Counted from the stretch's first letter, positions 903-62,900 are shown. The stretch is 62,900 nucleotides of DNA from a virus (IMGVR_UViG_3300042987_001364:1-62900), one strand, 5' to 3'. The notes: a model not told the origin generated them from the letters alone. Program-made: numbers and translations.

Positions 903-1178
903 ATGGAAGAGATGACTGATCTGGAAGAAGTGTTGGCTGAGCGTGGCTCCAAGTACGGCGAGTTTTCAAAGAACTCTATGGTGAGCCAGTTGCTTAAATC
1001 AACTTTGTACAATGTTCCGCGAAATGCAGCGTTCTCCCACTATCAGCGGGAAGCGTTGGACATGATCGCCAATAAACTATCCAGGATTGTCTGCGGCGAC
1101 CCGAATTACGCCGACTCGTGGAGAGACATTGCTGGCTATGCCACGTTGGTGGCTGACATTCTTGAGTCTCGCAAATGA
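903..1178 (+). CDS. DUF6378-like small phage protein
   Basis: LAERGSKYGEF...KLSRIVCGDPNYADSWRDIAGYATL motif. Confidence 0.7.
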   Translation: MEEMTDLEEVLAERGSKYGEFSKNSMVSQLLKSTLYNVPRNAAFSHYQREALDMIANKLSRIVCGDPNYADSWRDIAGYATLVADILESRK

Positions 1179-3679
1179 GCGACTTGGCCGCGTTGATTTC
1201 TAAGCTGCCTGAGAATGAGCAACAGAAGTTGTTGGCTCAGGTAGGCGCATATAAAGAGGCGCTGGAGCGGGAGAAGGCGCAAGCGGACTTCATGGCGTTT
1301 GTGAAGATGATGTGGCCGTCGTTTATCCACGGTCGGCACCATGCTTTGATGGCGAAGAAGTTCGAGGAAATCGCGGCGGGGAAGGTGAAGAGACTCATCA
1401 TCAACATGGCCCCTCGGCACGCGATAAGGTTAGATATGAAGATACCAACATTGAACGGATGGAAAACGATGGCCGACTTATTGGTTGGCGATTATGTTTT
1501 CGGGCCTGATGGGATTCCAACAGAGGTAATTGGAAAATCAGAAGTGTTTCACGATAGAGACATTTATCGCGTGACTACGGATGATGGATTCAGCCTGGAT
1601 GTTGATGGCGAGCATCTTTGGACGGTTAGGTTGCACCGAAAGCACGATGTCTATCACGACTTCACGACTGAAGAGTTATGGCGTAGGCAGAACGGTGAAG
1701 TGCTGAGAATGGGTAGAGGTGGGAGCACACACTTCTTGGCGGGGCATGTCAAAAATCCACGATTGCCAAGATTGCCTGACGTGAATCCCGTCATTTACGA
1801 ACGGCAATCCTTGCCGATAGCACCCTATGTTCTTGGTGTATGGCTCGGTGATGGGCACAAGAATCAAGGGGTAATTACCTGTCACGATGACGATCAGGTT
1901 GGCATTCGGCAAATGTTCGAGGCGCTTGGGTACAGAACGACTGCCCAATCTACCCCGATGACGTTCGGAGTTTTGGGTCTAAAAGAAAAACTCCGCGATC
2001 TTGGTGTGTTAGGGAACAAACACATCCCGCAGGCGTATCTGATGGGTAGCGTAGATCAACGTAGATGGTTGCTCAAAGGTCTGATGGACACGGATGGCAA
2101 CGTGTCAAAAGCAGGTCAATGTTTCTTCGCGCAAAGCAACTTGAGTCTCATCAATCAAGTGCGCGAACTTCTAGCCAGCCTTGGGATTAAGAACTCATTG
2201 ATCTCTACCGAGGCAAAAATTGGAGACAAAAGCTACGGCAAGACATGGAGGATTAGCTTTTATGCTTCCAACATTGCTCATTTAGACAGGAAAGAAAATC
2301 GGACGATCAAGTACAAGCCAGCATTCGGAAGGTACATCAAAGTAGAAAAACTAAACGAAACTGGCAGTACGCAATGTATCAAGGTAGCTCGTCAAGACGG
2401 TTTGTTTTTGGCCGGAGAAGGCTACATTTGTACGCACAACACCAAATCCGAGTTTGGCTCGTTTCTTTTGCCGGCTTGGTTTTTAGGAAAGTACCCGGAG
2501 AAGAAAGTTATCCAATGTTCAAACACGGCGGAATTGGCTGTTGGCTTCGGACGGAAGGTTCGAAACCTGGTTGGGTCGGATCACTATAAGAAAGTGTTTC
2601 CGAGTGTTGATCTTCGGGCTGATAGCAAAGCGGCTGGACGCTGGGATACCTCGGGTGGGGGTAGCTATTTTGCTATCGGCGTTGGAGGTACGGTGACAGG
2701 TAAAGGTGCTGACCTTCTTATCATCGATGACCCGCACAGCGAGCAAGAGGCCAAGTTAGCCCAAGGCGACCCGACCGTATTTGACGGCGTGTATGAATGG
2801 TACACCTCCGGACCACGGCAACGTCTCCAGCCAGGGGCGGCCATTGTCGTAATTATGACTCGCTGGAGTGACAAGGACTTAACGGGCAAGATCATTAGGA
2901 ACTCACGACACGAGGACGAATGGGAAGTGATCGAGCTACCGGCCATCCTTCCATCGGGCGCACCTCTATGGCCTGAGTTCTGGAGTCTCGAAGAGCTTCT
3001 TGCTCTTAAAGAAGAGTTACCTTCCTACAAGTGGAACGCACAGTACCAGCAACAGCCGACTGGCGAAGCGGGTGCGATTATTAAGCGTGAGTGGTGGCGT
3101 ATATGGAATAAAGATCGTCCGCCTAATTGTGAATTCATTATCCAGTCTTGGGATACAGCCTTTACCAAAGGCGAGAGGTCGGACTATTCGGCCTGTACGA
3201 CTTGGGGTATTTTTAATCTTAACGAAGACCCCAATGATGTGAATATCATATTGCTGGATGCGTTTAAGGATAAATGGGAGTTCCCGGAATTAAAACAAGC
3301 AGCATTTAATTCGTGGAAAGAATGGGAGCCTGACGCATTTATTATTGAAGCGAAGGCAGCTGGGGCGCCGTTGATATTTGAGTTAAGGCGTATGGGTATT
3401 CCGGTTAGTGAATATACGCCATCGCGCGGTAATGACAAATTTGCGCGTCTCAATTCGGTTACAGATTTGTTTGCCTCGGGTAAAGTATGGGCACCGGACG
3501 CGAGGTGGGCTGATGAAGTAATTGAGGAAATGGCGAGATTTCCTAATGCGGAGCACGATGACTTATTGGATAGCTCGGTGCAGGCCCTCATCCGGTTTAG
3601 GCAGGGTGGATTTTTGCGGTTACAGACCGACGAGCCTGACGAGGAAATCGGATGGCGGCGAAAAAAGGCATATTATTGA
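1175..3679 (+). CDS. terL: Terminase large subunit, intein-containing (about 494 aa after splicing)
   Basis: Walker A INMAPRH|TKS split by an intein; Walker B LLIIDDP; nuclease motifs IIQSWDTA, IEAKAAG and HDDLLDS. Confidence 0.95.
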   Translation: MSDLAALISKLPENEQQKLLAQVGAYKEALEREKAQADFMAFVKMMWPSFIHGRHHALMAKKFEEIAAGKVKRLIINMAPRHAIRLDMKIPTLNGWKTMADLLVGDYVFGPDGIPTEVIGKSEVFHDRDIYRVTTDDGFSLDVDGEHLWTVRLHRKHDVYHDFTTEELWRRQNGEVLRMGRGGSTHFLAGHVKNPRLPRLPDVNPVIYERQSLPIAPYVLGVWLGDGHKNQGVITCHDDDQVGIRQMFEALGYRTTAQSTPMTFGVLGLKEKLRDLGVLGNKHIPQAYLMGSVDQRRWLLKGLMDTDGNVSKAGQCFFAQSNLSLINQVRELLASLGIKNSLISTEAKIGDKSYGKTWRISFYASNIAHLDRKENRTIKYKPAFGRYIKVEKLNETGSTQCIKVARQDGLFLAGEGYICTHNTKSEFGSFLLPAWFLGKYPEKKVIQCSNTAELAVGFGRKVRNLVGSDHYKKVFPSVDLRADSKAAGRWDTSGGGSYFAIGVGGTVTGKGADLLIIDDPHSEQEAKLAQGDPTVFDGVYEWYTSGPRQRLQPGAAIVVIMTRWSDKDLTGKIIRNSRHEDEWEVIELPAILPSGAPLWPEFWSLEELLALKEELPSYKWNAQYQQQPTGEAGAIIKREWWRIWNKDRPPNCEFIIQSWDTAFTKGERSDYSACTTWGIFNLNEDPNDVNIILLDAFKDKWEFPELKQAAFNSWKEWEPDAFIIEAKAAGAPLIFELRRMGIPVSEYTPSRGNDKFARLNSVTDLFASGKVWAPDARWADEVIEEMARFPNAEHDDLLDSSVQALIRFRQGGFLRLQTDEPDEEIGWRRKKAYY
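1421..2440 (+). mobile_element. Intein (340 aa, Ala1, class 3-type) with LAGLIDADG homing endonuclease
   Basis: Starts AIRLDMKIPTLNGWKTM; block B GEHLW; block F TQCIKV; ends ICTHN followed by Thr. LAGLIDADG motifs YVLGVWLGDG and LLKGLMDTDG. Confidence 0.92.
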
Positions 3680-3687
3680 GGTGAAGC

Positions 3688-6084
3688 ATGGCAACAAATT
3701 TTGACCGAGCGTTATACAGTGACGTGCCTCCACTAAATCTGGCTGAAGAGGCGCCAGAAATCGAAGTGGAAGTCGAATTTCCTGAAACATCACTTGGGAT
3801 TGACGGCCTTGAGATTAATCTTTCTTCAGAAGAAACAACGGCGGATGATTTTGATGGCAACTTGGCTGAGTTCATGGAGGAAGGTGCTCTTGAAAGCGTT
3901 GCTGGTGATCTTGTTGCTCTGGTGGATGCTGACATAAGCAGTCGCAAAGACTGGTCGGAGACATTCGTCAAAGGCTTAGAAGTTCTGGGGATGAAGTATG
4001 AAGAAAGAACAGAGCCATGGAACGGTGCCTGTGGTGTGTTTTCTACTGTGCTCACCGAAGCGGCAATTCGGTTTCAAAGTGAGTGTATTACCGAAACCTT
4101 CCCAGCAGCCGGCCCTGTTAAAACCCTCATCATCGGGGAAATAACCCAGCAAAAGACCGAAGCGTCAGAGCGTGTCAGAGATGACATGAACTACCAGCTT
4201 ACGGAGGTGATGCAAGAGTACCGCCCAGAACATGAGCGCGCACTGTTTAATCTTGGCCTGTCAGGAGCCGCGTTCAAAAAGGTCTATTTTGACCCGGCGC
4301 TTGATCGACAAGTATCCATGTACATCCCGGCTGAAGACATCATCATGCCGTATGGCTCGTCAGGCGTTCTCACCGCAGAGCGCGTGACCCACCTGATGCG
4401 CAAGACCAAGAACGAAATACGCAAACTGCAAGTAGCAGGCTTCTACCGCGACATCGATCTTGGCGAGCCAATCCAGATTCCGACTGATATCGAGAAGAAG
4501 AAAGCCGAGGAAGAAGGCTATTCAATCACAGATGACGAGCGTTATCAGATTCTCGAAATCCACGTCGATTACGACCTCCCCGGCTACGAGAACGAAGACG
4601 GAATTGCTCTGCCATATGTAATTACAATCGACCGTGGCAGCAACAAAGTTCTGGCAATTCGCAGGAACTACGCCGAAGATGACCCGACCTTCGCCAAACG
4701 TCAGCACTTCGTTCAATACACCTATATCCCTGGCTTCGGTGCGTACGGTTTTGGCCTGATCCATCTGATCGGTGGCTATGCCCGAGCGGGCACGATGCTC
4801 ATTCGGCAATTGATTGATGCCGGTTCCTTGGCAAATTTGCCCGGCGGATTGAAATCTCGCGGCCTGCGCGTCAAGGGTGACGACACGCCCATCGCCCCAG
4901 GTGAGTTCCGTGATGTGGATGTGCCGTCTGGGAGCATCCGGGACAACATCATGCCGTTGCCCTACAAGGAGCCAAGCCAAGTATTGATGGCACTTTTGGG
5001 CAATATCACCGAAGAAGCCCGAAGATTGGGTGCAATTTCGGACATGAAGATTAGCGACATGTCAGCGAATGCCCCAGTGGGTACGACGTTGGCATTGTTG
5101 GAACGGCAACTGAAGACCATGAGTGCGGTTCAGGCTCGTGTTCATTTCGCCATGAAGCAGGAATTCAAGCTGCTCAAGGCGATTATTCGTGATTTCACCC
5201 CAAGCCAGTACGAATACACGCCGGAGAAAGCCGACCGGAAGGCAAAACGCGAGGACTATGACCTCGTTGAAGTAATTCCGGTGAGCGATCCGAACAGCGC
5301 AACGATGGCGCAACGGATTATGCAGTACCAAGCGGCTATCCAATTGGCTCAAGGTGCGCCCCAAATCTACGATCTTCCTCAACTTCACCGCCAAATGCTC
5401 GAAGTTTTGGGTGTCAAGAACGCCGATAAGCTGGTGCCGCTTGAAGATGACATGAAACCGCGTGATCCGATCAGCGAAAACATGGCTTTCCTGTCCGGCA
5501 AACCCACGAAGGCGTTCATTTATCAGGATCACGACGCGCATATCGCGTGTCACATGTCGATGATGCAAGACCCGGTGCTGATGGCGCAGATTGGACAGTC
5601 TCCAATGGCCCAACAAATGCAGGCGGCGATTATGTCGCACGTGGCAGAGCACTTGGCATTCCTGTATCGCAAGCGTGTGGAAGAACAATTGGGTGTTCCG
5701 ATGCCAAAACCCAACGAAGAACTACCGGAAGACGTAGAAGTCCAGTTGTCGAGACTCGTGGCCCAGGCTGCAACACAGGTTTTGGCGCAAAGCAAGGGAC
5801 AAGCGGCACAGCAACAGGCCCAACAACAGGCACAAGACCCGCTTTTCCAGTTGCAACAACAGGAAATGCAGATCAAAGCGCAGGAAATCCAGAGAAAAGC
5901 CCAGAAAGACGCTCAAGACGGGCAAATTGCGCAGGCAAGACTGGCTTTGGAGTCGCAGCGCGCGGCAAATCAGGCCGAAGCAGACAGGTTGCGCATCGCG
6001 CTTCAGGCGCAACAACAGCAAGACGAGCAGGTACGCGATTTTGTCGATCGTATTACCGATATGCAATCACCCGAGACACGGTAA
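3688..6084 (+). CDS. Portal protein (P22-like, long Gln-rich coiled-coil C-terminus)
   Basis: 798 aa directly after terL; FKKVYFD motif; Q-rich helical tail. Confidence 0.85.
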   Translation: MATNFDRALYSDVPPLNLAEEAPEIEVEVEFPETSLGIDGLEINLSSEETTADDFDGNLAEFMEEGALESVAGDLVALVDADISSRKDWSETFVKGLEVLGMKYEERTEPWNGACGVFSTVLTEAAIRFQSECITETFPAAGPVKTLIIGEITQQKTEASERVRDDMNYQLTEVMQEYRPEHERALFNLGLSGAAFKKVYFDPALDRQVSMYIPAEDIIMPYGSSGVLTAERVTHLMRKTKNEIRKLQVAGFYRDIDLGEPIQIPTDIEKKKAEEEGYSITDDERYQILEIHVDYDLPGYENEDGIALPYVITIDRGSNKVLAIRRNYAEDDPTFAKRQHFVQYTYIPGFGAYGFGLIHLIGGYARAGTMLIRQLIDAGSLANLPGGLKSRGLRVKGDDTPIAPGEFRDVDVPSGSIRDNIMPLPYKEPSQVLMALLGNITEEARRLGAISDMKISDMSANAPVGTTLALLERQLKTMSAVQARVHFAMKQEFKLLKAIIRDFTPSQYEYTPEKADRKAKREDYDLVEVIPVSDPNSATMAQRIMQYQAAIQLAQGAPQIYDLPQLHRQMLEVLGVKNADKLVPLEDDMKPRDPISENMAFLSGKPTKAFIYQDHDAHIACHMSMMQDPVLMAQIGQSPMAQQMQAAIMSHVAEHLAFLYRKRVEEQLGVPMPKPNEELPEDVEVQLSRLVAQAATQVLAQSKGQAAQQQAQQQAQDPLFQLQQQEMQIKAQEIQRKAQKDAQDGQIAQARLALESQRAANQAEADRLRIALQAQQQQDEQVRDFVDRITDMQSPETR

Positions 6085-9706: not shown

Positions 9707-10345
9707 ATGGACGTAAAAACTTTGCCAAAAACACGAGCTGAAGCGAAGGCGATCGGGGCAACGCACTATTTCACGGGACAACCTTGCAAGCACGGGCATG
9801 TGGCGCCGCGCAAGACAAAAGGTAGTTGTGTTGAATGCCTGCGTTTGGAATGGATGACAAACAATGAGAAACGAGCCGACTACTTCGCGGAACGCAACCG
9901 CGATGAGGCGGTCAAACAGAAAAAGCACGAATGGTACTTAGCTCACCGGGAGGAGGTTATCGCACGAGCAAAGACGCAAACGCGAGAGCAAAAACGGCAG
10001 TATCAGACAGCATGGAAAGAGCGCAATCTTGTGTGGGTTAGGGCAGATACCAAAGCCCGTCGCCGTAAACATAGACAATCCACCCCGCCATGGATAACTC
10101 GCAAACAGAAATCAGAGATGCGCGAGTTGTATCAGATTGCTATCACTATGTCTAAAACCACGGGAGAGTTGTACGTCGTAGATCATATCTATCCCCTACG
10201 ATCAGAAACCGTATGTGGGTTACATGTGCCGTGGAATTTACGGGTCATTACGCGAGAGGAGAATTTGCGTAAGTCAAACGCAATTCCAGATGACTCCGTG
10301 GCTTTGGCATTTCTAAACGCTGTTGACCCCACCGAATCTACCTGA
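9707..10345 (+). CDS. Free-standing HNH endonuclease
   Basis: VDHIYPL...CGLHVPWNLRVITREENLRKSN; N-terminal PCKHGH...CVEC zinc-binding module. Confidence 0.88.
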   Translation: MDVKTLPKTRAEAKAIGATHYFTGQPCKHGHVAPRKTKGSCVECLRLEWMTNNEKRADYFAERNRDEAVKQKKHEWYLAHREEVIARAKTQTREQKRQYQTAWKERNLVWVRADTKARRRKHRQSTPPWITRKQKSEMRELYQIAITMSKTTGELYVVDHIYPLRSETVCGLHVPWNLRVITREENLRKSNAIPDDSVALAFLNAVDPTEST

Positions 10346-26599: not shown

Positions 26600-27949
26600 A
26601 TGGCTCTCGTAGATGCACGCATGCCCGCTGTGCCGAGCCTGCCACTAGGTCCGGTGCAATACGACAAAAAGTTCATGGATCAGTTCGCAAACGTCTTGCG
26701 GCTGTATTTCAATCAACTCAACTACGTGGTGGATCAGCTCGTGGCAAACCAAGGCCCTTATGAAGTTGGCTTCTACGGCGGAGCCATTGATGCGTTCGGA
26801 CGCGCTCGTTTTAGCGAGCCGTATACATTATTCGATAGCCAGAATCGGTTTGCGGCCGATGACCAGTTCGACACCTCTACGGCTACAGGCGGCAGCACAA
26901 CGTATCAAGCCAATGAGAGCACGGTCGATCTCAATGTGACGACAAGCTCCGGTAGTGAAGTGGTGCGACAGACCTATCGTTCCATGCCATATCAGCCGGG
27001 TAAGAGCCTGCAAGTCATGGCGACATTTGTGATGAACGCCGGAAAAGAAAACCTTCGGCAACGCGTAGGCTATTTCAACACCGAAAACGGCGTGTTCTTC
27101 CAGCAGAACGGAACAACGAAATCCTTCGTGCTGCGCACTTACACCAGCGGCACCGCCAGCGACACACGAACCGTAAATCAGGCAGACTGGAACGGTGACA
27201 AGTTGGATGGAACCGGCGATAGCGGCTATACGCTCGACATTACGAAAGCGCAAATTTTCTTTGCCGACTTCGAGTGGCTGGGCGTAGGCAGTGTGCGGTG
27301 TGGCTTTGTCATCAACGGGCGATTCGTTATCTGCCACACATTCAACAACGCGAACGACATCAATAAGGTGTACATGACCACGGCTATTCTGCCGGTCAGG
27401 TATGAGATTACAAATACAGGCGTGACTGCATCTTCATCGACCATGAAGCAGATTTGCTCGACGGTCGTGTCAGAAGGCGGCTACCAGCAGCAAGTCAAAC
27501 AGCAGATTGCCCGGCGCACGACGGCCTTGGCAACAATTGGCACTACGCTCCTACCGCTGGTATCTATTCGGCTCAAAAGCACAAGGCTCGGGGCGATTGT
27601 GCTACCTCAACTGATGTCAGTGTTCCCAACAAGTGCAGGCAACTACGAAATTCAGTTGGTCAAAAACACGACCCTCACTGGCGCATCGTGGGTGACAAGT
27701 GGCTTCAATAATGTGGAATACGACATCACAGCAACAGCCATGAGTGGTGGCACTACGGTGCAGGTCGAATACTCCTCAGCGACAAACCAATCAGGTGGTT
27801 CCTCCACAGGAGATACAGGGTACAACTTTGATTTGCAACTAGGTGCCAGCCTTGCCGGGGTAAGCGACATCTACACAATCGGCGTGCGCGTATTGTCGGG
27901 CACGGGAGACGCCATTGGCGGACTTGCATTTATTGATTTGACGGATTGA
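26600..27949 (+). CDS. Tail tip/spike-associated protein
   Basis: N-terminal LRLYFNQL helix, then a DAFGR...YQPGK...EWLGVG beta domain. Confidence 0.55.
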   Translation: MALVDARMPAVPSLPLGPVQYDKKFMDQFANVLRLYFNQLNYVVDQLVANQGPYEVGFYGGAIDAFGRARFSEPYTLFDSQNRFAADDQFDTSTATGGSTTYQANESTVDLNVTTSSGSEVVRQTYRSMPYQPGKSLQVMATFVMNAGKENLRQRVGYFNTENGVFFQQNGTTKSFVLRTYTSGTASDTRTVNQADWNGDKLDGTGDSGYTLDITKAQIFFADFEWLGVGSVRCGFVINGRFVICHTFNNANDINKVYMTTAILPVRYEITNTGVTASSSTMKQICSTVVSEGGYQQQVKQQIARRTTALATIGTTLLPLVSIRLKSTRLGAIVLPQLMSVFPTSAGNYEIQLVKNTTLTGASWVTSGFNNVEYDITATAMSGGTTVQVEYSSATNQSGGSSTGDTGYNFDLQLGASLAGVSDIYTIGVRVLSGTGDAIGGLAFIDLTD

Positions 27950-27951
27950 TT

Positions 27952-30900
27952 ATGTCTGAGTGGTGGGAGCAACTTACCGGTGAATCGGGCGGCCCAAGCC
28001 AAGCGCAACTGAACCTGGCGGGTTGGGAATGGACGGGCGGAGAAGGAGGTAGTTGGAGACCTCCTCCGGGTTGGGTGAGCGACGACAACGCCCTTATGGG
28101 GTATCGTCCGCCCACACCTGAACCCCCGCCTCCACCCCCTCCGCCGCCTCCGCCGCCGCGTCAACAGATCATTATTGACTCAAGCGCGGCTAAGAACGCG
28201 TCTGAATACTGGTCACGCTGGTCCAAGGATGACCTTTATAACAGAAGCGCGGTACAGCTACAATATAACGGCGTTCCCGCTATTTTTGTACCTGAATCAT
28301 ATGTCCAAAAAGGTGCTTTGGTAGGCGATATTCAGTTCTACAACAAAGCCTTTTTGAACAAAGATAATTGGCAGTATTTGAAGCCAGTTCAATTGGAATC
28401 TGATGTGGTTCCAGAAAGCGATCCGGGTCGAAAGTTTCGGTATGATTACCTAGACAACCCCAACACGGGGTATTTAATCGAAAAGGATGTTTGGAAAAAC
28501 ATATTTAGCCCGAATCAAGTATACGCTCGCAAAAGCACCTTCAGCGTAAAAGGCAACTCCAAGGATTCGGTTCCCATACAAGGCATGGCCGAAATCGATG
28601 GCAAGCTTCAGTATTACGGTTTGCGCGGCGGAGAGAGCGCCGGAGAACTTACTACTTACGCAGATACATATCAGTCAAAAGGATGGAAGTCAGGTAGCAG
28701 CGGCTTTTTCCCAAGATTATTCAGTAACCCAGTCACACAGATTATTGGCGCTATTGTTGGCGGGGTTCCGTTCGTTGTTGGCTCGGCTATCGGCCGTTCG
28801 GCAGTGACCGGAAACTGGGGGCAGGCCGCACTATCGATTGCGCTGGCAAATATCCCCGGTGCGGACGGAGCGTCAGCGGTTGAAGGCACCATTTTCGAAA
28901 TTCCAGCAGTTGCCTCGTCCGTGAAAACGGTATCCGAGGTATTGGGCGTTTCCGCTGCAACGGCCGGTGCAATCGTAGGCGGAACTTTCACGTCGTTAGC
29001 ATCGGGCGGTGATATTAAAGATGTGCTGAAGACCGTCGCAGCGAATGTGGCGGGGCTCAATGTTGGTGAATACGTAGGGCAGTTAGTCGAAACAGCGGGA
29101 TTTAAGGGATTGCAACAGATTGCAACGGCGGTATCCAAAGAGGGTACTCGTGCCATGCTGTTGAATCAGGATATTCCAGCAGCTACTAAAAACGCGTTTA
29201 TCAACACGGCGGTTCCGCTTGCTCTGCAATCAGCACCGGGCTGGAAAAATCTAAGCGCAACGCAGCAGAAGGCCATTACGAGTGCCGCACTGGGAGCGGC
29301 ACAAGGCGGTAAGTTGGACGTTGGACAAACGATTAAGAACTTTGCGACTGAAGTATTCGCTGAATCGGCGCTGGAAACGCTCGGCAAGTCGATGAAGCTG
29401 TCAGCGTCGCAACGTCAGTTTGCGAAGGACTTGATCGTAGGCGGCATCCAAGGCAAACCATTGGATTCAGTGCTGCAAAAATCACTGCTCAACCAAGCCA
29501 AGGCAGGTATTCAGCTTCAGGTCAATGATGCCAACGCGCAAAAAGCAGGGTGGGCAGACTACGCGCAACAACAGGCGGCGCAGAGTCAGTACGGGCCCAA
29601 GATTACGGCAGCGGATTACCAAGCCCGGCAACAGGGTTGGGAGGACTTAGCCGATAAACGAGCCGCGATCAAAGCTTACGGCGACACCATCACGCCTGTT
29701 GGCGCCAAAGAACGCGAACAGGTCAAAAGCATTGATCCAAAGTTTGATGCCGAAGCCTATGCCAAGCTGAATGACGTGGCGGGCGACCCGTTTGCTCACT
29801 TTTTGGAGCAAGGCGTCAAGGCAAAGTTGCCTACAAACTACGCGGCTGGTGCGGATGAGGCACTAAAATCCGTTGGGTATTCGGCGTCGGGTAAAGAAGT
29901 AAATGAAGTTGCCAAAGGATTAAAAGATTCGGCAAACCCAGACGTGTTTCTGGCGCAGTGGTACGACCAGAAAACCGTAACTCAAAGCGAACTCGCACGG
30001 CTAGAGCAAGAAACCGGGATAACGCTGACGGATGCCCAAAGACAGAAACTCATCGGTCAAAATGACCAAGCTAAAGTCACAGCAGACTTGCAAAAACTTG
30101 GTGAGGTATCAAAGAAAGATCAACAAACGAAGCTCGTCCGAGAGCAAACGCTTACGGATAGTCTGATTAAAAAATTCACGGATCGCGGCGAGACACCAGA
30201 AGTAGCGCAGAGACGGGCGCAGGAGTATTTGTCGCAACTTCGGTCAGTTGAGAAACAACTGGCAGATGAAAAGACGCTGTATGCCAATCAAGTTGGTGCT
30301 AAATACGGTAGAAACTCGCCAGAGTTTATAGCCGCCATGCGCGACGTGTTGGAATACAAAGCCAAGGTCGGTGGATTTGGCGTTACAAAGGATGAGTCCG
30401 GTGCGTTTGTCACAACGACTGGCGCCAAGATTGATCCAGAAACGCTGAAATCAATTTCAGAGGTGTCAACATCTGGATTGTTGGCAGATGCCAAGAATGC
30501 GCTGTCCGGGCTGTTCCCACGAACAATCGGCACTATCCCGTCGGCAGCAGACATTACCAAAGAAGCGAAGGCGCTAGGCATTACTCTGACCAAAGATCAG
30601 ATCAATAGCATCGCGGGCAGGTACTCAGAACAGTCATTAACGGACCGTATCAAGGGCATCGCGGAAAGCGCGTTGGGAGCGATCATTCCGTCGGCAGAAG
30701 CTGCTGGGATAGCGCCGGTGGCTAGGGAAACTATCCGTCAAGAATATAACTCGCAAAAAGTAAGAGAATTTTTGACCGATTCTCAGGTGATGGCAAACAG
30801 AACGAATCCGAATGGGTTCTCCGGCTATGTAAATGCGTCGGGCCGAAAGTTGACCAATGCGGAGGCATATAACCTCGTCGGAAAAGAGCCGTTATATGGC

Positions 30901-32055
30901 AATCTCAATATACTGGTTCCAGATGGTAAGGGAGGCATAACGTATATTGGACGGGAAGTTTCAGAAACCCAAGATAAAGACGGTGAGGAAACGGTATCCC
31001 TGTCAGAAGCTCTGAACGAACAACAGAAAGAACAGCAAGCTATATCTCAGGCGCTGCGGGACATATTGGAAGGCAAAGAACCGCAACTGCCTCCTTTGCC
31101 TGAGCAGCCAACGCAACCTCCGACTCCTCCGACAGAGGAAAAGCCCACGGGTGGAGAAGGCACGACACAACCAACTCCGGAAACGCCTACGCCAACTCCG
31201 GTTACGCCTACGCCGGGAGGAGGGTCGATTGGTGAAGCGACAACTCCGACACCTACCCCTACACCAACTCCGGGTGCAGGCGATACAAACATCACGCCGG
31301 TAACGCCACAGGTGCCCACGCCAACACCGGAGACTGGTAGCGGATCAGGCGGTGCAGGCACAACACCTACACCTCCACCTACACCGGGAGGTGGTACGAC
31401 AGGCGGCACGACAGGCGATACAACGGGCGGCACGCCCGGAGGTATAACAGGTGGTACAACAGGCGGAGAGCCGGGGGGTACAACAGGTGGAGAGCCCGGA
31501 GGTACTACAGGTGGCACGCCGGGGGGTACTCCCGGAGGTACTACAGGCGGAGAGCCTGGTGGCACGCCGGGTGGTGGTCTTGGAGGCACCGGAATTGACA
31601 CAGGTACAGGTGGCGGCGGTATTGGTGGAGGTGGAACTGGGACCGGCGGCACAGGTGGCACAGGCGGTGGAACTGGAGGCGGAACAGGTACTGGGACTGG
31701 CACAGGCACAGGGCCCGGAACGGGTATCGGTGGCGGAACAAGTGCAGACATTCTCAAAGAATTGCGCGATATCCTCGGTCCGGGGTTTGCTGGCATCGCG
31801 ATCAATCAAGCGTTGTCGCAGTCGGCAACCAACAGACAGATACAGCAAGCGCAGCAACAGGCTAATTTCGGTAACTTGTTGTCAATTCTAGGGCTCGCTG
31901 GTCAGCAGAAGGAACAGCCAGAGATTCCGTTGCCGTTAGTAGGCAATATCACGCCCTATCAGTTCAGCACAAATTTGCTTGAGAACGTATATAAACCGAA
32001 AATGGCCGAAGGCGGCTCAATTGATGAATTGTTGAAAATTATTAGGGGATCGTGA
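27952..32055 (+). CDS. Large internal virion/ejection protein with hydrophobic segment and low-complexity tracts
   Basis: About 1367 aa; poly-Pro, hydrophobic GAIVGG region, PT and GGTTG repeats; C-terminal MAEGG. Confidence 0.6.
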   Translation: MSEWWEQLTGESGGPSQAQLNLAGWEWTGGEGGSWRPPPGWVSDDNALMGYRPPTPEPPPPPPPPPPPPRQQIIIDSSAAKNASEYWSRWSKDDLYNRSAVQLQYNGVPAIFVPESYVQKGALVGDIQFYNKAFLNKDNWQYLKPVQLESDVVPESDPGRKFRYDYLDNPNTGYLIEKDVWKNIFSPNQVYARKSTFSVKGNSKDSVPIQGMAEIDGKLQYYGLRGGESAGELTTYADTYQSKGWKSGSSGFFPRLFSNPVTQIIGAIVGGVPFVVGSAIGRSAVTGNWGQAALSIALANIPGADGASAVEGTIFEIPAVASSVKTVSEVLGVSAATAGAIVGGTFTSLASGGDIKDVLKTVAANVAGLNVGEYVGQLVETAGFKGLQQIATAVSKEGTRAMLLNQDIPAATKNAFINTAVPLALQSAPGWKNLSATQQKAITSAALGAAQGGKLDVGQTIKNFATEVFAESALETLGKSMKLSASQRQFAKDLIVGGIQGKPLDSVLQKSLLNQAKAGIQLQVNDANAQKAGWADYAQQQAAQSQYGPKITAADYQARQQGWEDLADKRAAIKAYGDTITPVGAKEREQVKSIDPKFDAEAYAKLNDVAGDPFAHFLEQGVKAKLPTNYAAGADEALKSVGYSASGKEVNEVAKGLKDSANPDVFLAQWYDQKTVTQSELARLEQETGITLTDAQRQKLIGQNDQAKVTADLQKLGEVSKKDQQTKLVREQTLTDSLIKKFTDRGETPEVAQRRAQEYLSQLRSVEKQLADEKTLYANQVGAKYGRNSPEFIAAMRDVLEYKAKVGGFGVTKDESGAFVTTTGAKIDPETLKSISEVSTSGLLADAKNALSGLFPRTIGTIPSAADITKEAKALGITLTKDQINSIAGRYSEQSLTDRIKGIAESALGAIIPSAEAAGIAPVARETIRQEYNSQKVREFLTDSQVMANRTNPNGFSGYVNASGRKLTNAEAYNLVGKEPLYGNLNILVPDGKGGITYIGREVSETQDKDGEETVSLSEALNEQQKEQQAISQALRDILEGKEPQLPPLPEQPTQPPTPPTEEKPTGGEGTTQPTPETPTPTPVTPTPGGGSIGEATTPTPTPTPTPGAGDTNITPVTPQVPTPTPETGSGSGGAGTTPTPPPTPGGGTTGGTTGDTTGGTPGGITGGTTGGEPGGTTGGEPGGTTGGTPGGTPGGTTGGEPGGTPGGGLGGTGIDTGTGGGGIGGGGTGTGGTGGTGGGTGGGTGTGTGTGTGPGTGIGGGTSADILKELRDILGPGFAGIAINQALSQSATNRQIQQAQQQANFGNLLSILGLAGQQKEQPEIPLPLVGNITPYQFSTNLLENVYKPKMAEGGSIDELLKIIRGS
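31080..31740 (+). repeat. Coding low-complexity PT-rich and GG(T/E)(T/P)G repeats
   Basis: TPTPTPTP and GGTTGGEPGGTTGG arrays in the 27952-32055 protein. Confidence 0.85.
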
Positions 32056-46941: not shown

Positions 46942-47016
46942 GCTCCCTTCGTATAACGGTTATTACGGCTGATTTGTAATCAGCTTATCTGGGTTCGATT
47001 CCTAGAGGGAGCACCA
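46942..47016 (+). tRNA. tRNA-Thr(TGT)
   Basis: Acceptor GCTCCCT/AGGGAGC; anticodon stem GCTGA/TCAGC with loop TT-TGT-AA; T-loop TTCGATT; encoded CCA. Confidence 0.92.
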
Positions 47017-47120
47017 GTCAGAGTGGGCATTGTGCGCCAATCCTTTCTCGGGATGCGCAGTCAGTATGCACAGTGCCTACTCTCACTGGTATCTGCCAGT
47101 GAAACCGAGAAAGGAAAATC

Positions 47121-47276
47121 ATGAAACGCAAAATCTTAGTTGGCCTCGCCTTAGTCGGCATCCCGCTGGCGGCATGGGCTAACTGCACTCACTTCACGAT
47201 GATGGTCGGAGATCGTGTGGTGCCATGTACCATATGCTGCACACCAGAGGGTCAGTGCGTCACGCGCTGTTTCTAA
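47121..47276 (+). CDS. Secreted cysteine-rich peptide (51 aa, not in the ORF track)
   Basis: SD aagga; signal peptide MKRKILVGLALVGIPLAAWA; mature NCTHFTMMVGDRVVPCTICCTPEGQCVTRCF; hairpin at 47284-47305. Confidence 0.75.
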   Translation: MKRKILVGLALVGIPLAAWANCTHFTMMVGDRVVPCTICCTPEGQCVTRCF

Positions 47277-47375: not shown

Positions 47376-47417
47376 TTACGTCACCCTCTTGACGTAATAC
47401 GTGAGGTTAGGCAAGAT
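47376..47417 (+). promoter_or_regulatory. Promoter with overlapping palindromic operator
   Basis: TTGACG (47389)-N17-CAAGAT; inverted repeat TTACGTCA-N6-TGACGTAA at 47376-47397. Confidence 0.6.
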
Positions 47418-47423
47418 TTCTCC

Positions 47424-47580
47424 TGTTGGGCGGCATCCCAACAATGTCTATAGGAACAATAACTTACCCCAGAATGTTCAAGTGGGGCATGTGTAATCAG
47501 TGGTGCGTTGTTCCTATCGCATTGTTGGTTGCCCATGCCAGGGCCATGCCCCACTTAAGCACTCTGGGGTTTTTGCTTTT
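47424..47580 (+). ncRNA. Antisense/attenuator RNA: long stem plus U-tract, loop complementary to the upstream leader
   Basis: 25-bp stem 47467-91/47545-69 then TTTTTGCTTTT; loop 47508-33 pairs with 47432-59. Confidence 0.7.
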
Positions 47581-47581
47581 C

Positions 47582-47959
47582 TGGCTCGCTTCAACTCGGC
47601 TTCTGTTTAAGAGTCACTTAAGTCCCGATACCTCGGGTAGGAACTGAGTAACCGTAAAGCGTCATGGCGGCGGCGAAAGGGTAGTACCTTAGGACGGACG
47701 TATGGAAACGGTGGGCAGTAGCTTAAAGCTGGAACAATCGCACCAGACCAGCAAGAGCGGGATGCACTCAAAGTATCGAGTGGCGCAGTGCTCGGTGTGA
47801 GCCTCCTGATAGGCAAAAGACTGCGACTCAACACGGGTTAGGCCGGGGTTGAGCGATGGGGTGACTCAGCGGATACCTAATCTAGCATGAGCCATTGGAT
47901 ACATCCCGAGGGTTGCCTTCGTAGGCTGCCCTTGGGAAGGTTTTGCCCAGAGTTCCTAT
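47582..47959 (+). ncRNA. Candidate long structured RNA
   Basis: No convincing ORF; many helices including TGGCTC/GAGCCA, GAGTCAC/GTGACTC, CGCAGT/ACTGCG and TAGGAACT/AGTTCCTA. Confidence 0.55.
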
Positions 47960-48003
47960 GCGTTTCCTATCCCGCATGCCACGTGATCCTGACGAGACTG
48001 AAT

Positions 48004-48426
48004 ATGCGAGTCGACTTAAACGTACCGTATGCTGAAAAAGAGAGTGCCAAAAGATTAGGCGCTAGATGGGATGCAATCAAAAAGACTTGGTATGTGATCG
48101 ACGCTGTGGAGTTGTGGCCGTTCATGAAGTGGATGCCTGCTCATCTTAAGCGGCCTGTTAAGAACACTCAGCCTACAGCACAGACCAAGACGGCTAAACG
48201 AAGTAAGCAAGTGAAGTCTAAGAAGGCTTATGAGAACGCCATGAACAGACTGGCACAGAAGAACGCGAGTCTGATTGTTGGCCCGATGACTTCACGAACG
48301 GACTTCTCTTTACCTGACACGGGTTGTTCGTGTCCGCCGTGGGAGGAATGCGAACACGTTCTACGGGCTAGAGTTGAAGTCAGTCCTGAGCAGTTAAGTC
48401 ATATCAGGTCGATCATCAACGGGTAG
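48004..48426 (+). CDS. DUF5710-domain protein
   Basis: LNVPYAEKESAKRLGARWD...KKTWY; start ATG 48004 preferred over 47887. Confidence 0.75.
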   Translation: MRVDLNVPYAEKESAKRLGARWDAIKKTWYVIDAVELWPFMKWMPAHLKRPVKNTQPTAQTKTAKRSKQVKSKKAYENAMNRLAQKNASLIVGPMTSRTDFSLPDTGCSCPPWEECEHVLRARVEVSPEQLSHIRSIING

Positions 48427-48663
48427 TAGACTTGTGGGTTAACGTACTACAATATGTCATGTTGTCGGACTCGAACCATGGCGAGGCGTGTGATCCACAG
48501 ATGACAACGGACACCCCGGAGAGACGGGGGCTAACAGGAAAGCAAGTCAGGAGTATCCTCAACTACAGGGGATAGAATTCGTGGCTTCTGGCTTGCTTCC
48601 TTGTTGGCGTTACGGGGCGGGGCGCTGTCATGGCGCGTTAAGAAAGTCCTATTTCGCCAACAT

Positions 48664-48786
48664 CCAACACGCATGAGTATTGGAGTCCGAGGGGGCGCGA
48701 ACCCTTGGTAAGCCAGTTAATAATTCCGACAGTCCTAGGAAACTTCGAATGAAACTGACCAGATAGCCAGTACTCAGCCGTGTTGG
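48664..48786 (+). ncRNA. Three-way-junction RNA motif, copy 1
   Basis: CCAACACG-ca-TGAGTATTGG ... CCAGTACTCA-gc-CGTGTTGG; covaries with copy 2. Confidence 0.75.
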
Positions 48787-48897
48787 TGTAGCTCAACTGA
48801 AAGCTGGCATATATTGAAACCAGCTAGTCGGCAGACGAAAGATAGAGCGGCCTCGGCAGGGGACGGTTGCGGGTTTGAATCCCGTCATCAACAACCA
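48781..48897 (+). ncRNA. tRNA-like RNA lacking an anticodon, with expanded D-loop
   Basis: 8-bp acceptor, TA, D-stem GCTC/GAGC, T-arm GCGGG-TTTGAAT-CCCGT, A-CCA end; anticodon loop replaced by a GGCA tetraloop. Confidence 0.75.
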
Positions 48898-49024
48898 ACA
48901 CGCATGGCGATTGGACTCTAAGATAGCGCGAAATCTTGGTAAGCCCATCAATAGTCCGAAGTCCTGGCGCTAGAGGTATTCTTCGGATGCGGTGAGCCAG
49001 ATAGCCAGTCGCCAGCCGTGTTGG
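48895..49024 (+). ncRNA. Three-way-junction RNA motif, copy 2
   Basis: CCAACACG-ca-TGGCGATTGG ... CCAGTCGCCA-gc-CGTGTTGG. Confidence 0.75.
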
Positions 49025-49128
49025 GGGAAGTACTGAGTGCCACAGTGCACTATTGTTACTGTGTTCCTACCTGTTAGCATGCTACTCATTACAACACATG
49101 CCACGGGGCATGAACTTGGAGAGTCTGT

Positions 49129-49425
49129 ATGAACCGCATCCCGTCAGTACCTAACATCCCTGTTCTGTCGAAGCCAGAGCGTAACTTTACATACGGAGAG
49201 TTGCGGCAGAAATGTGACAAGCTACAGGATGAAGTTCGTCGGCTGCAGGATATCGTGGATCATCAGCACGCGATCATCTTGAGCCAGCAGCCCATGATGG
49301 CTCATCTTCAATGGGAGGCATCGAAGTGGCAGCACTTCAAGAGGATCATGGAGAAGGAACAGGGTACGGCCGCAGTTGCGGAGGCAGAGCACGCGGTACA
49401 ACAACGCATGGCGGGGTTGATTTGA
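49129..49425 (+). CDS. Hypothetical coiled-coil protein
   Basis: SD ggaga; first ORF after the RNA array. Confidence 0.6.
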   Translation: MNRIPSVPNIPVLSKPERNFTYGELRQKCDKLQDEVRRLQDIVDHQHAIILSQQPMMAHLQWEASKWQHFKRIMEKEQGTAAVAEAEHAVQQRMAGLI

Positions 49426-62179: not shown

Positions 62180-62900
62180 ATGAGCGAAGACAAGTGGGAC
62201 AAGATCGAGCCAGCAGGTAGGGGCAAGCGCGGGCTGTCAGGTGGGAGTGAGGGCGCGGAAAAGAAAAAGAGTAGCGAAGCGAAACGGCTCACACGCAGAC
62301 AGATACAAGAAACAAGACAGACACTTAAAGAGATGTCCCCAGATCAAATGCTCCACGTCGTAGGAGTAAGCAAATCAACACTCACACCAAAGCAAAGAGC
62401 ATACGCATACAACGTCGCAATGGGACACACAGGCGCAGATGCCTACAGGAAAGCGTACAACTGCACAGGAAAACCAAAAACAATCGGGGATCATGCCAGC
62501 CGATTGAAACGCGATGCCCGAATACAGGCGGAAATAGAAGCGTATCAGCTAGCTAATGAAGCGGCGAAACATCGCACCCCTGAGCAGCTAAGAAACCTTG
62601 TAATTCAAACACTTGTACAGCAAGTGATCGATCCCGAAACACCTCCGGCGATACGTACTCAGGCTGTAAAAACGCTCGGTCAGGTCACAGAAGTCGCTGC
62701 ATTTACTGAGCGGAAAGAATCAATTGTACATCATAGCTCAGATGCGTTGCGCACAAAGATAATGGGCGAATTACAGGCATTGATGTCGGGCAAGACTATA
62801 GATGGTGAGCGCATCGAACAGGACGCCTCATCGCTACTGGCCGAGCTATCAGCACCACAAGACACGCCAGGCACAGCCAGCACCGACAGCACAAATGCTA
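62180..62900 (+). CDS. terS: Terminase small subunit; continues across the junction to TGA at 130-132 (about 241 aa)
   Basis: Manual translation gives MSEDKWDKIEP...LTPKQRAYAYNVAMGHTGADAYRKAY...ASRLKRDARIQAEI..., a TerS-type HTH. The frame is open through the repeat and lies upstream of terL. Absent from the ORF track. Confidence 0.8.
   Translation, partial: MSEDKWDKIEPAGRGKRGLSGGSEGAEKKKSSEAKRLTRRQIQETRQTLKEMSPDQMLHVVGVSKSTLTPKQRAYAYNVAMGHTGADAYRKAYNCTGKPKTIGDHASRLKRDARIQAEIEAYQLANEAAKHRTPEQLRNLVIQTLVQQVIDPETPPAIRTQAVKTLGQVTEVAAFTERKESIVHHSSDALRTKIMGELQALMSGKTIDGERIEQDASSLLAELSAPQDTPGTASTDSTNA
62774..62900. repeat. Direct terminal repeat copy 2 (contig circularisation overlap)
   Basis: Identical to 1-127; 127 is a common assembler k-mer length. 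Confidence 0.97.

Follow-up and report, generated by a model that had tools for sequence, protein, structure and literature searches.

A chained array of stalked hairpin modules and tRNA-like elements in the genome of an uncultivated phage

The complete freshwater phage genome IMGVR_UViG_3300042987_001364 from IMG/VR, whose 62,900 bases are referred to here as the window, contains at 48461-49024 (+ strand) a stretch of about 560 base pairs (bp) that can be folded into one hairpin after the other. The question raised by this locus is whether these hairpins represent chained small RNAs, processing signals acting in cis, elements of the DNA itself or parts of one large RNA. An initial annotation had described a chain of structured modules on one strand, joined by common TGTTGG/CCAACA handles and free of open reading frames (ORFs). 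The coordinates and sequences of all modules named there agree with the window sequence, no ORF of more than 52 amino acids (aa) overlaps the stretch on either strand, and the comparison with relatives upholds the chain. From 5' to 3' the module order is a small conserved hairpin, H', X1, H1, X2 and H2, with H and X denoting the two kinds of module described below. We consider it somewhat probable that the locus is a co-transcribed array of stalked RNAs and transfer RNA (tRNA)-like elements, which would be cut by host ribonuclease (RNase) III and by tRNA-maturation enzymes.

A family of conserved stalks

The first motif copy, H1 (48664-48786, +), consists of a closing helix P1 (CCAACACG/CGUGUUGG), a 2x2 internal loop (CA/GC), a second helix P2 (UGAGUAUUG/CAGUACUCA) and an interior of 85 nucleotides (nt). 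The second copy, H2 (48895-49024, +), shows a handle of the same type with UGGCGAUUG/CAGUCGCCA as P2 and an interior of 92 nt. When folding energies were compared with those of 200 dinucleotide shuffles, none of the shuffles folded as well as H1 (z -4.13) or H2 (z -4.64), and the same was true for H' together with X1 (48533-48662, z -5.19). In an alignment of H1 with H2, 10 of the 37 predicted pairs are changed on both sides.

A first scan of IMG/VR viral sequences, for which the pattern had been tailored to the type of interior seen in the window, gave no match, and the neighbouring DUF5710 protein, used as a lead, pointed to one related locus only. A covariance model of the two window copies (R1), run over 80 related loci found via the neighbouring nuclease, gave 15 matches, all on the strand equivalent to window +. 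These matches agree at their ends alone (CCAAsACGCAUGGGGAUUG ... CAGUCCCCAGYCGUGUUGG), the middles being unrelated. An 18-base pattern of the 3' handle was present in at least 120 IMG/VR stretches. With both ends required, the matches listed comprise 153 distinct sequences in 126 loci. Judged by sequence, H1 and H2 are members of this large unannotated family of predicted stalked modules, which we named H.

The H stalk has the consensus YYAAsACGCAUGRGGAUUG ... CAGUCCYCAGYCGUGUUGG, that is, two near-invariant strands of 19 nt each. They form an 8-bp P1, a 2x2 internal loop (CA opposite GY) and a 9-bp P2, 19-20 bp overall, and enclose a hypervariable interior of 4-104 nt. As the collecting pattern fixed several of the handle columns, invariance in those columns is built in; the columns left free are 86-100% conserved. 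A handle-only model (R2), built from 54 short relatives with the window excluded, detects H1 with 28.4 bits (E 2.7e-7) and H2 with 13 bits (E 0.04); on H' the H handle model reaches only 8.5 bits (E 1.3).

Conservation of the helices in relatives was a point on which the initial annotation had staked its proposal, and those of the H stalk are indeed kept. Across the alignment of the 54 relatives, 94.9% of the handle cells pair, and changes on both sides occur in 5 of 17 pairs. On each of five measures the observed value lies beyond all of 500 shuffles, and pairing falls to 31-48% of cells if the partner strand is moved by 1-3 columns. Covariation in P1 is also seen in L104, L125 and L087 (L numbers denote collected loci). 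The wobble U17:G is kept in 143 of the 153 sequences. Among 2601 handle cells there are 227 G:U against 5 A·C. This assigns the pairing to a single strand and excludes a double-stranded palindrome recognised by a dimeric protein. In its geometry (8 bp, 2x2 loop, 9 bp) the stalk is of the RNase III type, as is H' with about 21 pairs or more.

Conserved inverted ends around a variable middle would also suit hairpins of single-stranded DNA or inverted repeats. Such elements might act as recombination or cassette-exchange sites, in the manner of attC or of miniature inverted-repeat transposable elements (MITEs), or as replication or packaging signals. We regard a role of this kind at the DNA level as improbable, since the excess of G:U over A·C fixes one strand, the one that is sense for the tRNAs and genes nearby.

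X modules and the shared strand

Modules of the X kind alternate with H; they are hairpins that have UGUUGGUG...CACCAACA as closing strands, and some of them are tRNA-like. The dinucleotide UG lies directly 3' of the H handle, giving UGUUGGUG, in 99 of 153 cases, and for 67 of the 153 the eight bases made up of UGUUGG and the two that follow it have an exact complement within 260 nt 3' of H. The X stem measures 8-13 bp in 66 of these 67. Nine of them carry bases other than UG after UGUUGG, with the partner strand matched. A single base stands 3' of the X closing strand, often followed by the next H; it is A in 32 of 36 X-to-H joints.

In the window, X1 (48602-48662, +) is a hairpin with UGUUGGCG/CGCCAACA as closing strands, after which come U and CCA. 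In DNA letters the closing strands are TGTTGGCG (48602-09) and CGCCAACA (48655-62), with T and CCA after them. The sequence UGUUGG is common to the 5' strand of X1 and the 3' strand of H'.

X2 (48781-48897, +) is a tRNA-like element without an anticodon, as judged by its Rfam match and its homologues. The Rfam tRNA model (RF00005) matches 48782-48893 with 31.2 bits, above its cut-off of 29 (E 0.015 for a search of the complete window); ARAGORN does not call X2 as a tRNA gene. The acceptor stem has 8 bp (UGUUGGUG/CAUCAACA) and is followed by A and CCA at the 3' end. The D stem (GCUC/GAGC) encloses an insert of 46 nt, and the T arm (GCGGG-UUUGAAU-CCCGU, with a loop of the UUCRANY type) directly adjoins the acceptor arrangement. 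The place of the 17-nt anticodon arm is taken by 14 nt that form a short hairpin with a GGCA loop. Folded alone, the X2 piece is within chance (z -0.85).

Five homologues (L122, L187, L118, L175 and L180) keep acceptor, D stem, mini hairpin and T arm, so that the tRNA-like fold proposed by the initial annotation is found in six sequences. Acceptor and T arm are conserved in all six, and the 4-bp D stem shows a compensated change from C:G to U:A. At the anticodon position each has a 5-bp hairpin with a 4-nt loop, which reads GGCA in four of the six, and the 7-nt anticodon loop needed for decoding is absent from X2 and from the five homologues. An X module in L132 is closer still to a real tRNA, yet likewise without an anticodon loop.

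The initial annotation had stated that H1 and X2 cannot both be fully folded on one molecule, and the overlap is real. The 3' strand of H1 (CGTGTTGG, 48779-86) and the 5' acceptor strand of X2 (TGTTGGTG, 48781-88) have TGTTGG in common, so that at most one of the two helices can be complete per molecule. This is a trait of the family and not an accident of this window, as UGUUGG ends the H stalk and starts the X stem throughout. In three relatives the hexamer itself is changed, and both partner strands follow the change. L219 has UGAUGG, with CUAUCA as the H 5' strand and CCAUCA as the X 3' strand; L171 has UGUUGA, with UCAA.. and UCAACA, respectively; and L199 has UGCUGG, with CUAGCA and CCAGCA. 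Both pairings therefore appear to be under selection, as far as three single cases, which are not a statistic, can suggest. Constrained folding of 48590-49030 gave -166.0 kcal/mol with the H1 stalk and -157.6 kcal/mol with the X2 acceptor, favouring the stalk by 8.4 kcal/mol in nearest-neighbour energies that ignore the tertiary contacts of tRNA.

A further idea of the initial annotation, the insertion of cassettes at CCA ends, is not supported by the counts, which show that CCA is not conserved at the joints. Among the 36 H modules with an X immediately 5' of them, 13 begin with CUA, 11 with CCA, 9 with CCU and 3 with CUU, and in the whole family 78 of 153 begin with CCA.

Module order and genomic setting

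At the 5' end of the array lies a putative small junction (48461-48508, +; GUUGUC 48461-66/GACAAC 48503-08). Its sequence is as initially described; its fold found no support (z -0.64, within chance, for 48461-48532 including the hairpin that follows), nor was a conserved counterpart found in the relatives. Next to it stands a G-hairpin, CCCCG-GAGAGA-CGGGG (48514-48529, +), of a kind that lies just 5' of an H or H' module and is conserved in relatives. Its pattern occurs at 18 places, all on the array strand and seven of them directly 5' of an H, the places in Polynucleobacter recurring in the overlapping L215, L218 and L219. The stems are compensated (CCCCG/CGGGG, CCUCG/CGAGG, CUCCG/CGGAG, UCUCG/CGAGA and GCGCG/CGCGC). 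H' (48531-48607, +) is a long near-perfect hairpin closed by CUAACA/UGUUGG, with an H-type outer handle and another inner stem. The long stem that had been reported at 48533-53/48585-605 is present, with about 21 pairs including wobbles and one bulge. A Polynucleobacter prophage likewise carries a module of the H' kind 3' of a G-hairpin, with the matched handle variant CUAUCA/UGAUGG.

A comparison of module order and number among relatives shows that the modules are reshuffled, and that the joints are formed by the common TGTTGG handle and not by CCA. Each locus has one to three canonical H modules, in an order that is shuffled between relatives. In other metagenome contigs a copy-2-type H is directly followed by the counterpart of X1 (the module at 48602-48672), joined to it at the common TGTTGG, and then by a terminator. 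This free variation bears on the possibility that the whole of about 560 nt forms a single large, ornate RNA whose tertiary architecture is fixed. ROOL and GOLLD, phage-associated RNAs that are often found near tRNA genes, are of this kind, and the similar size, the phage setting, the embedded tRNA-like element and the strong fold would fit. A single fixed fold would not, however, tolerate the free variation of module number, order and content, and no Rfam match to ROOL, GOLLD or another large RNA was obtained even at E values up to 10, which leaves this explanation very improbable.

The array is not tied to one genome position or neighbour, and none of the window proteins is a consistent neighbour of H across the loci. 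In loci with a match to terL, H is on the terL strand in 28 of 28 and upstream of terL in 26. True tRNAs near H, wherever present, are on the same strand, and in L027 an H starts exactly at the CCA of a tRNA-Met.

Part of this setting would again suit recombination sites or packaging signals in the DNA. Arrays often lie in the non-coding region before terL (the 26 of 28 loci just mentioned), module orders differ with joints exactly at the common TGTTGG, and recombination genes are near: the window encodes an ERF annealing protein as well as a PD-(D/E)XK nuclease, and the prophage RecT and an exonuclease. Such an origin would, on the other hand, not account for T arms of the tRNA type within modules or for an H that abuts a real tRNA at its CCA. 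Moreover, no integrase or transposase gene was seen beside the arrays in the neighbour searches that were run, and the opposite orientation relative to genes was never seen (28/28), whereas MITEs insert both ways.

Among the INPHARED phage records there was no DNA match to the stretch, and searches for the short canonical H gave chance matches of 18-23 nt only; the best relative of the neighbouring nuclease in a cultured phage shows 39% identity. In bacterial assemblies 15 pattern matches were obtained, of which five are complete H modules. The remaining ten are without a 5' handle and most likely due to chance. Three of the complete modules are on contigs of metagenome-assembled genomes of uncultured Burkholderiales and one is on a 2.3-kb contig binned as Flavobacterium. 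The fifth is on a 1.18-Mb contig of a cultured Polynucleobacter strain (L219). There a lambdoid prophage carries the array upstream of a tRNA-Gly, together with genes for a repressor, replication proteins, RecT, an exonuclease, an HNH nuclease and an RNA ligase. R2 matched 1 of 151 sampled Polynucleobacter genomes, namely the one that bears this prophage, which together with the prophage setting shows the element to be phage cargo and not a host gene. The RNA ligase of the prophage operon (L219 3082-4044, -; phrog_968, E 7.8e-43) is encoded on the same strand, about 6 kb downstream of the H/X array and the tRNA-Gly; it was found in no other collected locus and not in the window.

In the window the array is flanked by two + strand genes, for the DUF5710 protein (47887-48426) and a 98-aa ORF (49129-49425). 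The ERF annealing protein and the PD-(D/E)XK nuclease are encoded on the opposite strand just upstream, and a helicase and a Toprim protein follow further downstream. A weak terminator-like hairpin with a poor T tract (49030-49051, +), detected by consensus scan alone, lies 3' of the array. Outside the array, a further long hairpin (47438-47528, +) has CCAACAAUG/CAUUGUUGG as its closing strands and a GGGG-U-rich, terminator-like end 3' of it; handle hexamers are found at 47438 and 47523, and the fold of 47410-47535 has a z of -3.08. With a promoter-like TTGACG...TAGGCA site seen by eye, this hairpin and its terminator-like end might make up a stand-alone small-RNA unit (47380-47580, +); the site was not called as a promoter by the consensus scan.

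Further upstream is a tRNA-Thr (46942-47013, +) that is recognised by Rfam 15 and is the sole tRNA called by ARAGORN, and directly 3' of it there is a very stable long hairpin (47017-47100, +; z -4.56 for the fold of 47020-47083). Between this tRNA and the RNA modules lies a 51-aa ORF (47121-47276, +) with a signal-peptide-like start and many cysteines, and a similar short cysteine-containing ORF is present 3' of a G-hairpin in L168 (about 10150-10260).

Several features of the genome lie apart from the array. An exact identity of 127 bases between 1-127 and 62774-62900 has been taken as a direct terminal repeat; it may just as well reflect an assembly overlap in a genome that is circular or permuted. 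TerL (834 aa, 1175-3679, +) contains a LAGLIDADG/Hom_end domain at about residues 284-354, between the N- and C-terminal domains of the terminase, which suggests an intein. In L094, L086 and L144, where the array precedes terL, the non-coding region around it is long and abounds in CCCCACC-type runs; an ORF resembling a terminase small subunit and a small ORF of the LexA-type helix-turn-helix kind flank this region. A similar C-rich region without an array is found at 130-530 of the window. A 1369-aa ORF (27946-32055), probably a tail or fibre protein, contains nine overlapping copies of 12-base period with glycine-rich codons (31390-31581, +). Finally, L161 encodes an int-alpA RNA (Rfam RF02996, 44.9 bits) at 5427-5494 (+), away from its array.

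Maturation of the array and comparison with known systems

How, then, could overlapping helices be used on one strand? The array is probably transcribed together with the flanking + strand genes, and for the nucleases and the order of events we infer the following. The H stalk would form first as the RNA is made, being the more stable option in the intact precursor. Host RNase III would then cut the helix of about 20 bp with its internal loop, by analogy with the stalks of 16S and 23S ribosomal RNA (rRNA). The freed UGUUGG could now close the X stem, and X might be trimmed like a pre-tRNA, by RNase P between U and GUUGGUG and by 3' processing after the discriminator A. We propose that folding and cutting would thus take place in a set order, imposed by the shared strand. 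With U at -1, G at +1 and a single base after the 3' strand, the X stem indeed looks like a substrate of RNase P and of 3' trimming. As to the products, our guess is that they serve as decoys or adaptors directed at host factors that bind RNA or target tRNAs.

A number of observations weigh against this reading. Among the sequencing runs listed with the stretch none is on record as RNA; one run is labelled RNA-Seq, is marked 'probably DNA' and, consisting of contigs, cannot show RNA ends. The consensus scan found no sigma-70 promoter or clear terminator bracketing the window array, and upstream of first-in-array H modules promoter-like sites are weakly enriched (8 of 102, compared with 2.9% of control windows). 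P1 is weaker than P2, with a G·G mismatch at position 5 in 48 of 153 sequences. At 5 of 60 loci a true tRNA follows on the same strand within 500 nt, and the commonest neighbour, terL, is present at 28 of 120, with otherwise no conserved neighbouring protein.

The sequence of the handle is, moreover, conserved far beyond the needs of RNase III and RNase P, so that a further reader of the handle is likely. A search for it revealed no Ro, RtcB or RNA ligase in the phage and no consistent neighbour across the loci. In detail, Ro/TROVE had no match in the complete phage genome at E values up to 1, with control genomes being detected. RtcB and RNA ligase families were not found in the phage genome, and Pfam and PHROGs scans of about 20 neighbouring ORFs gave no RNA-processing enzyme. 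Finally, interiors taken alone barely beat their shuffles (mean z -0.68 for 137 interiors, 12% below -2; about -0.3 each for H1 and H2), so that most of the thermodynamic signal in the window stems from the handles, and much of the interior could by this measure be filler.

The latter point leads to an alternative in which the handles are cis-acting processing or stabilising hairpins of phage operons, the interiors neutral filler, and no trans-acting RNA is made. RNase III sites between genes are known from T7. The extreme diversity of the interiors (152 of at least 20 nt fall into 109 sequence clusters, the largest with at most four members) would agree with it, as would their weak folding. 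The same applies to the window array, which lies between two + strand genes without its own promoter or terminator, and to the 11 of 153 H modules that stand directly 3' of a T run resembling an intrinsic terminator. There is, however, some evidence in the sequences that the interiors may be more than filler. The interior type of the window keeps its helices by changes on both sides, between H1 and H2 as well as in L091, where a full-length relative of the H2 interior type scores 86 bits with R1. Interiors carried by an H handle in one phage recur within an X handle in another (L132/L161 and L120/L097), which fits cargo that is kept, and nine interiors contain T-loop-like motifs. In addition, a plain RNase III hairpin would require neither 19 invariant nt nor a tRNA-like neighbour. 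We therefore think it unlikely that cis-acting hairpins are all there is to the array. With regard to a role of the interiors as guides or antisense RNAs, BLAST searches with them against all collected loci hit other array modules only, apart from a few exact matches of 18-21 nt.

The reading as a co-transcribed and processed array may be extended to a more speculative one, which we put forward tentatively and hold to be less likely true than not by some distance. Phages of freshwater Burkholderiales would possess a plug-in small-RNA system in which H stalk and X stem are the two universal sockets for a library of interiors that is large and turns over fast. At the DNA level the handles would allow the exchange of cassettes by short-homology recombination, and at the RNA level the shared hexamer would toggle between its two helices and release the modules in turn. 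The released RNAs, including mimics of acceptor and T arm that have no anticodon, would serve as decoys or adaptors against host defences that target tRNAs or sense RNA. Another possibility is that CCAACA strands left over join different molecules by pairing, so that larger assemblies arise.

If its modules are transcribed, the array stands for a large family of structured RNAs from uncultivated phages, one that Rfam 15 lacks and whose grammar is unusual. It would offer an example from nature of helices that exclude one another and fold in order on a polycistronic RNA, might show how small RNAs pass between phages as cassettes, and would give a testable lead on phage RNAs that imitate the acceptor end of tRNA. 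As a cultured Polynucleobacter strain carries an array in a prophage, the question is accessible at the bench.

With respect to known families, Rfam 15 was run on the window and on 17-18 related loci at gathering and permissive thresholds. The matches were tRNAs, the one int-alpA RNA in L161 and an 18-bit fragment of a transfer-messenger RNA T arm, and no family beyond these was detected. Within the array tRNA alone matches, so that, measured against Rfam 15, the system is undescribed, as had been supposed.

In rRNA operons the 16S and 23S rRNAs are enclosed by RNase III stalks and spacer tRNAs are released by RNase P. The array resembles this maturation in that long stalks made by the flanks enclose RNAs and alternate with tRNA-shaped elements on what would be one transcript, and in that the stalk has about two helical turns with an internal loop. 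It differs in that H encloses a hypervariable RNA of 4-104 nt, that the stalk sequence is near-invariant across phages and has six bases in common with the next tRNA-like stem, and that cleavage is here presumed. The tRNA cluster of T4 with its stable species 1 and 2 RNAs and the tRNA-microRNA units of murine gammaherpesvirus 68 are likewise viral non-coding RNAs chained to tRNAs or tRNA mimics, with host tRNA-maturation enzymes as the expected cutters. To our knowledge neither has a universal stalk with swappable interiors, or overlapping exclusive helices between neighbours. A transcription attenuator (1:2 versus 2:3) also has one strand with two exclusive partners, and in the array all three strands covary; unlike in the attenuator, there is no terminator or gene-expression platform on the switch, and the unit is repeated along the array.

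The bacterial Y RNAs (YrlA/Yrn1) are modular, have tandem paralogues and are also found in phages, and like the array they combine a conserved terminal stem with a variable or tRNA-like domain (PMC4201824). Unlike in YrlA, the tRNA-like part of the array is a separate neighbouring module and not within the same hairpin. An identity with Y RNA was rejected. There is no TROVE gene in the phage, the handle consensus is without the ...GNCGAA... motif for Rsr binding given in PMC4201824, and Rfam gave no match at E values up to 10 in the window stretch and up to 0.5 in 18 related loci.

In the literature on structured or tRNA-like RNAs of phages no description of such an array or handle was found, and the handle sequence itself led to unrelated matches only, such as primers. 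Like the H family, the 8,495 candidate structured RNAs of PMC10690425 were mined from IMG/VR, and many of them are unnamed tRNA-like and hairpin candidates, among which the modules may be listed without a name; no such array or handle is described in the sections of that catalogue that were accessible. The array thus belongs to a kind already known, that of viral non-coding RNAs chained to tRNA-like elements. Its predicted grammar, made up of a universal stalk, hypervariable interiors, overlapping helices with three-way covariation and reshuffling at the handles, sets it apart from every described system that we found.

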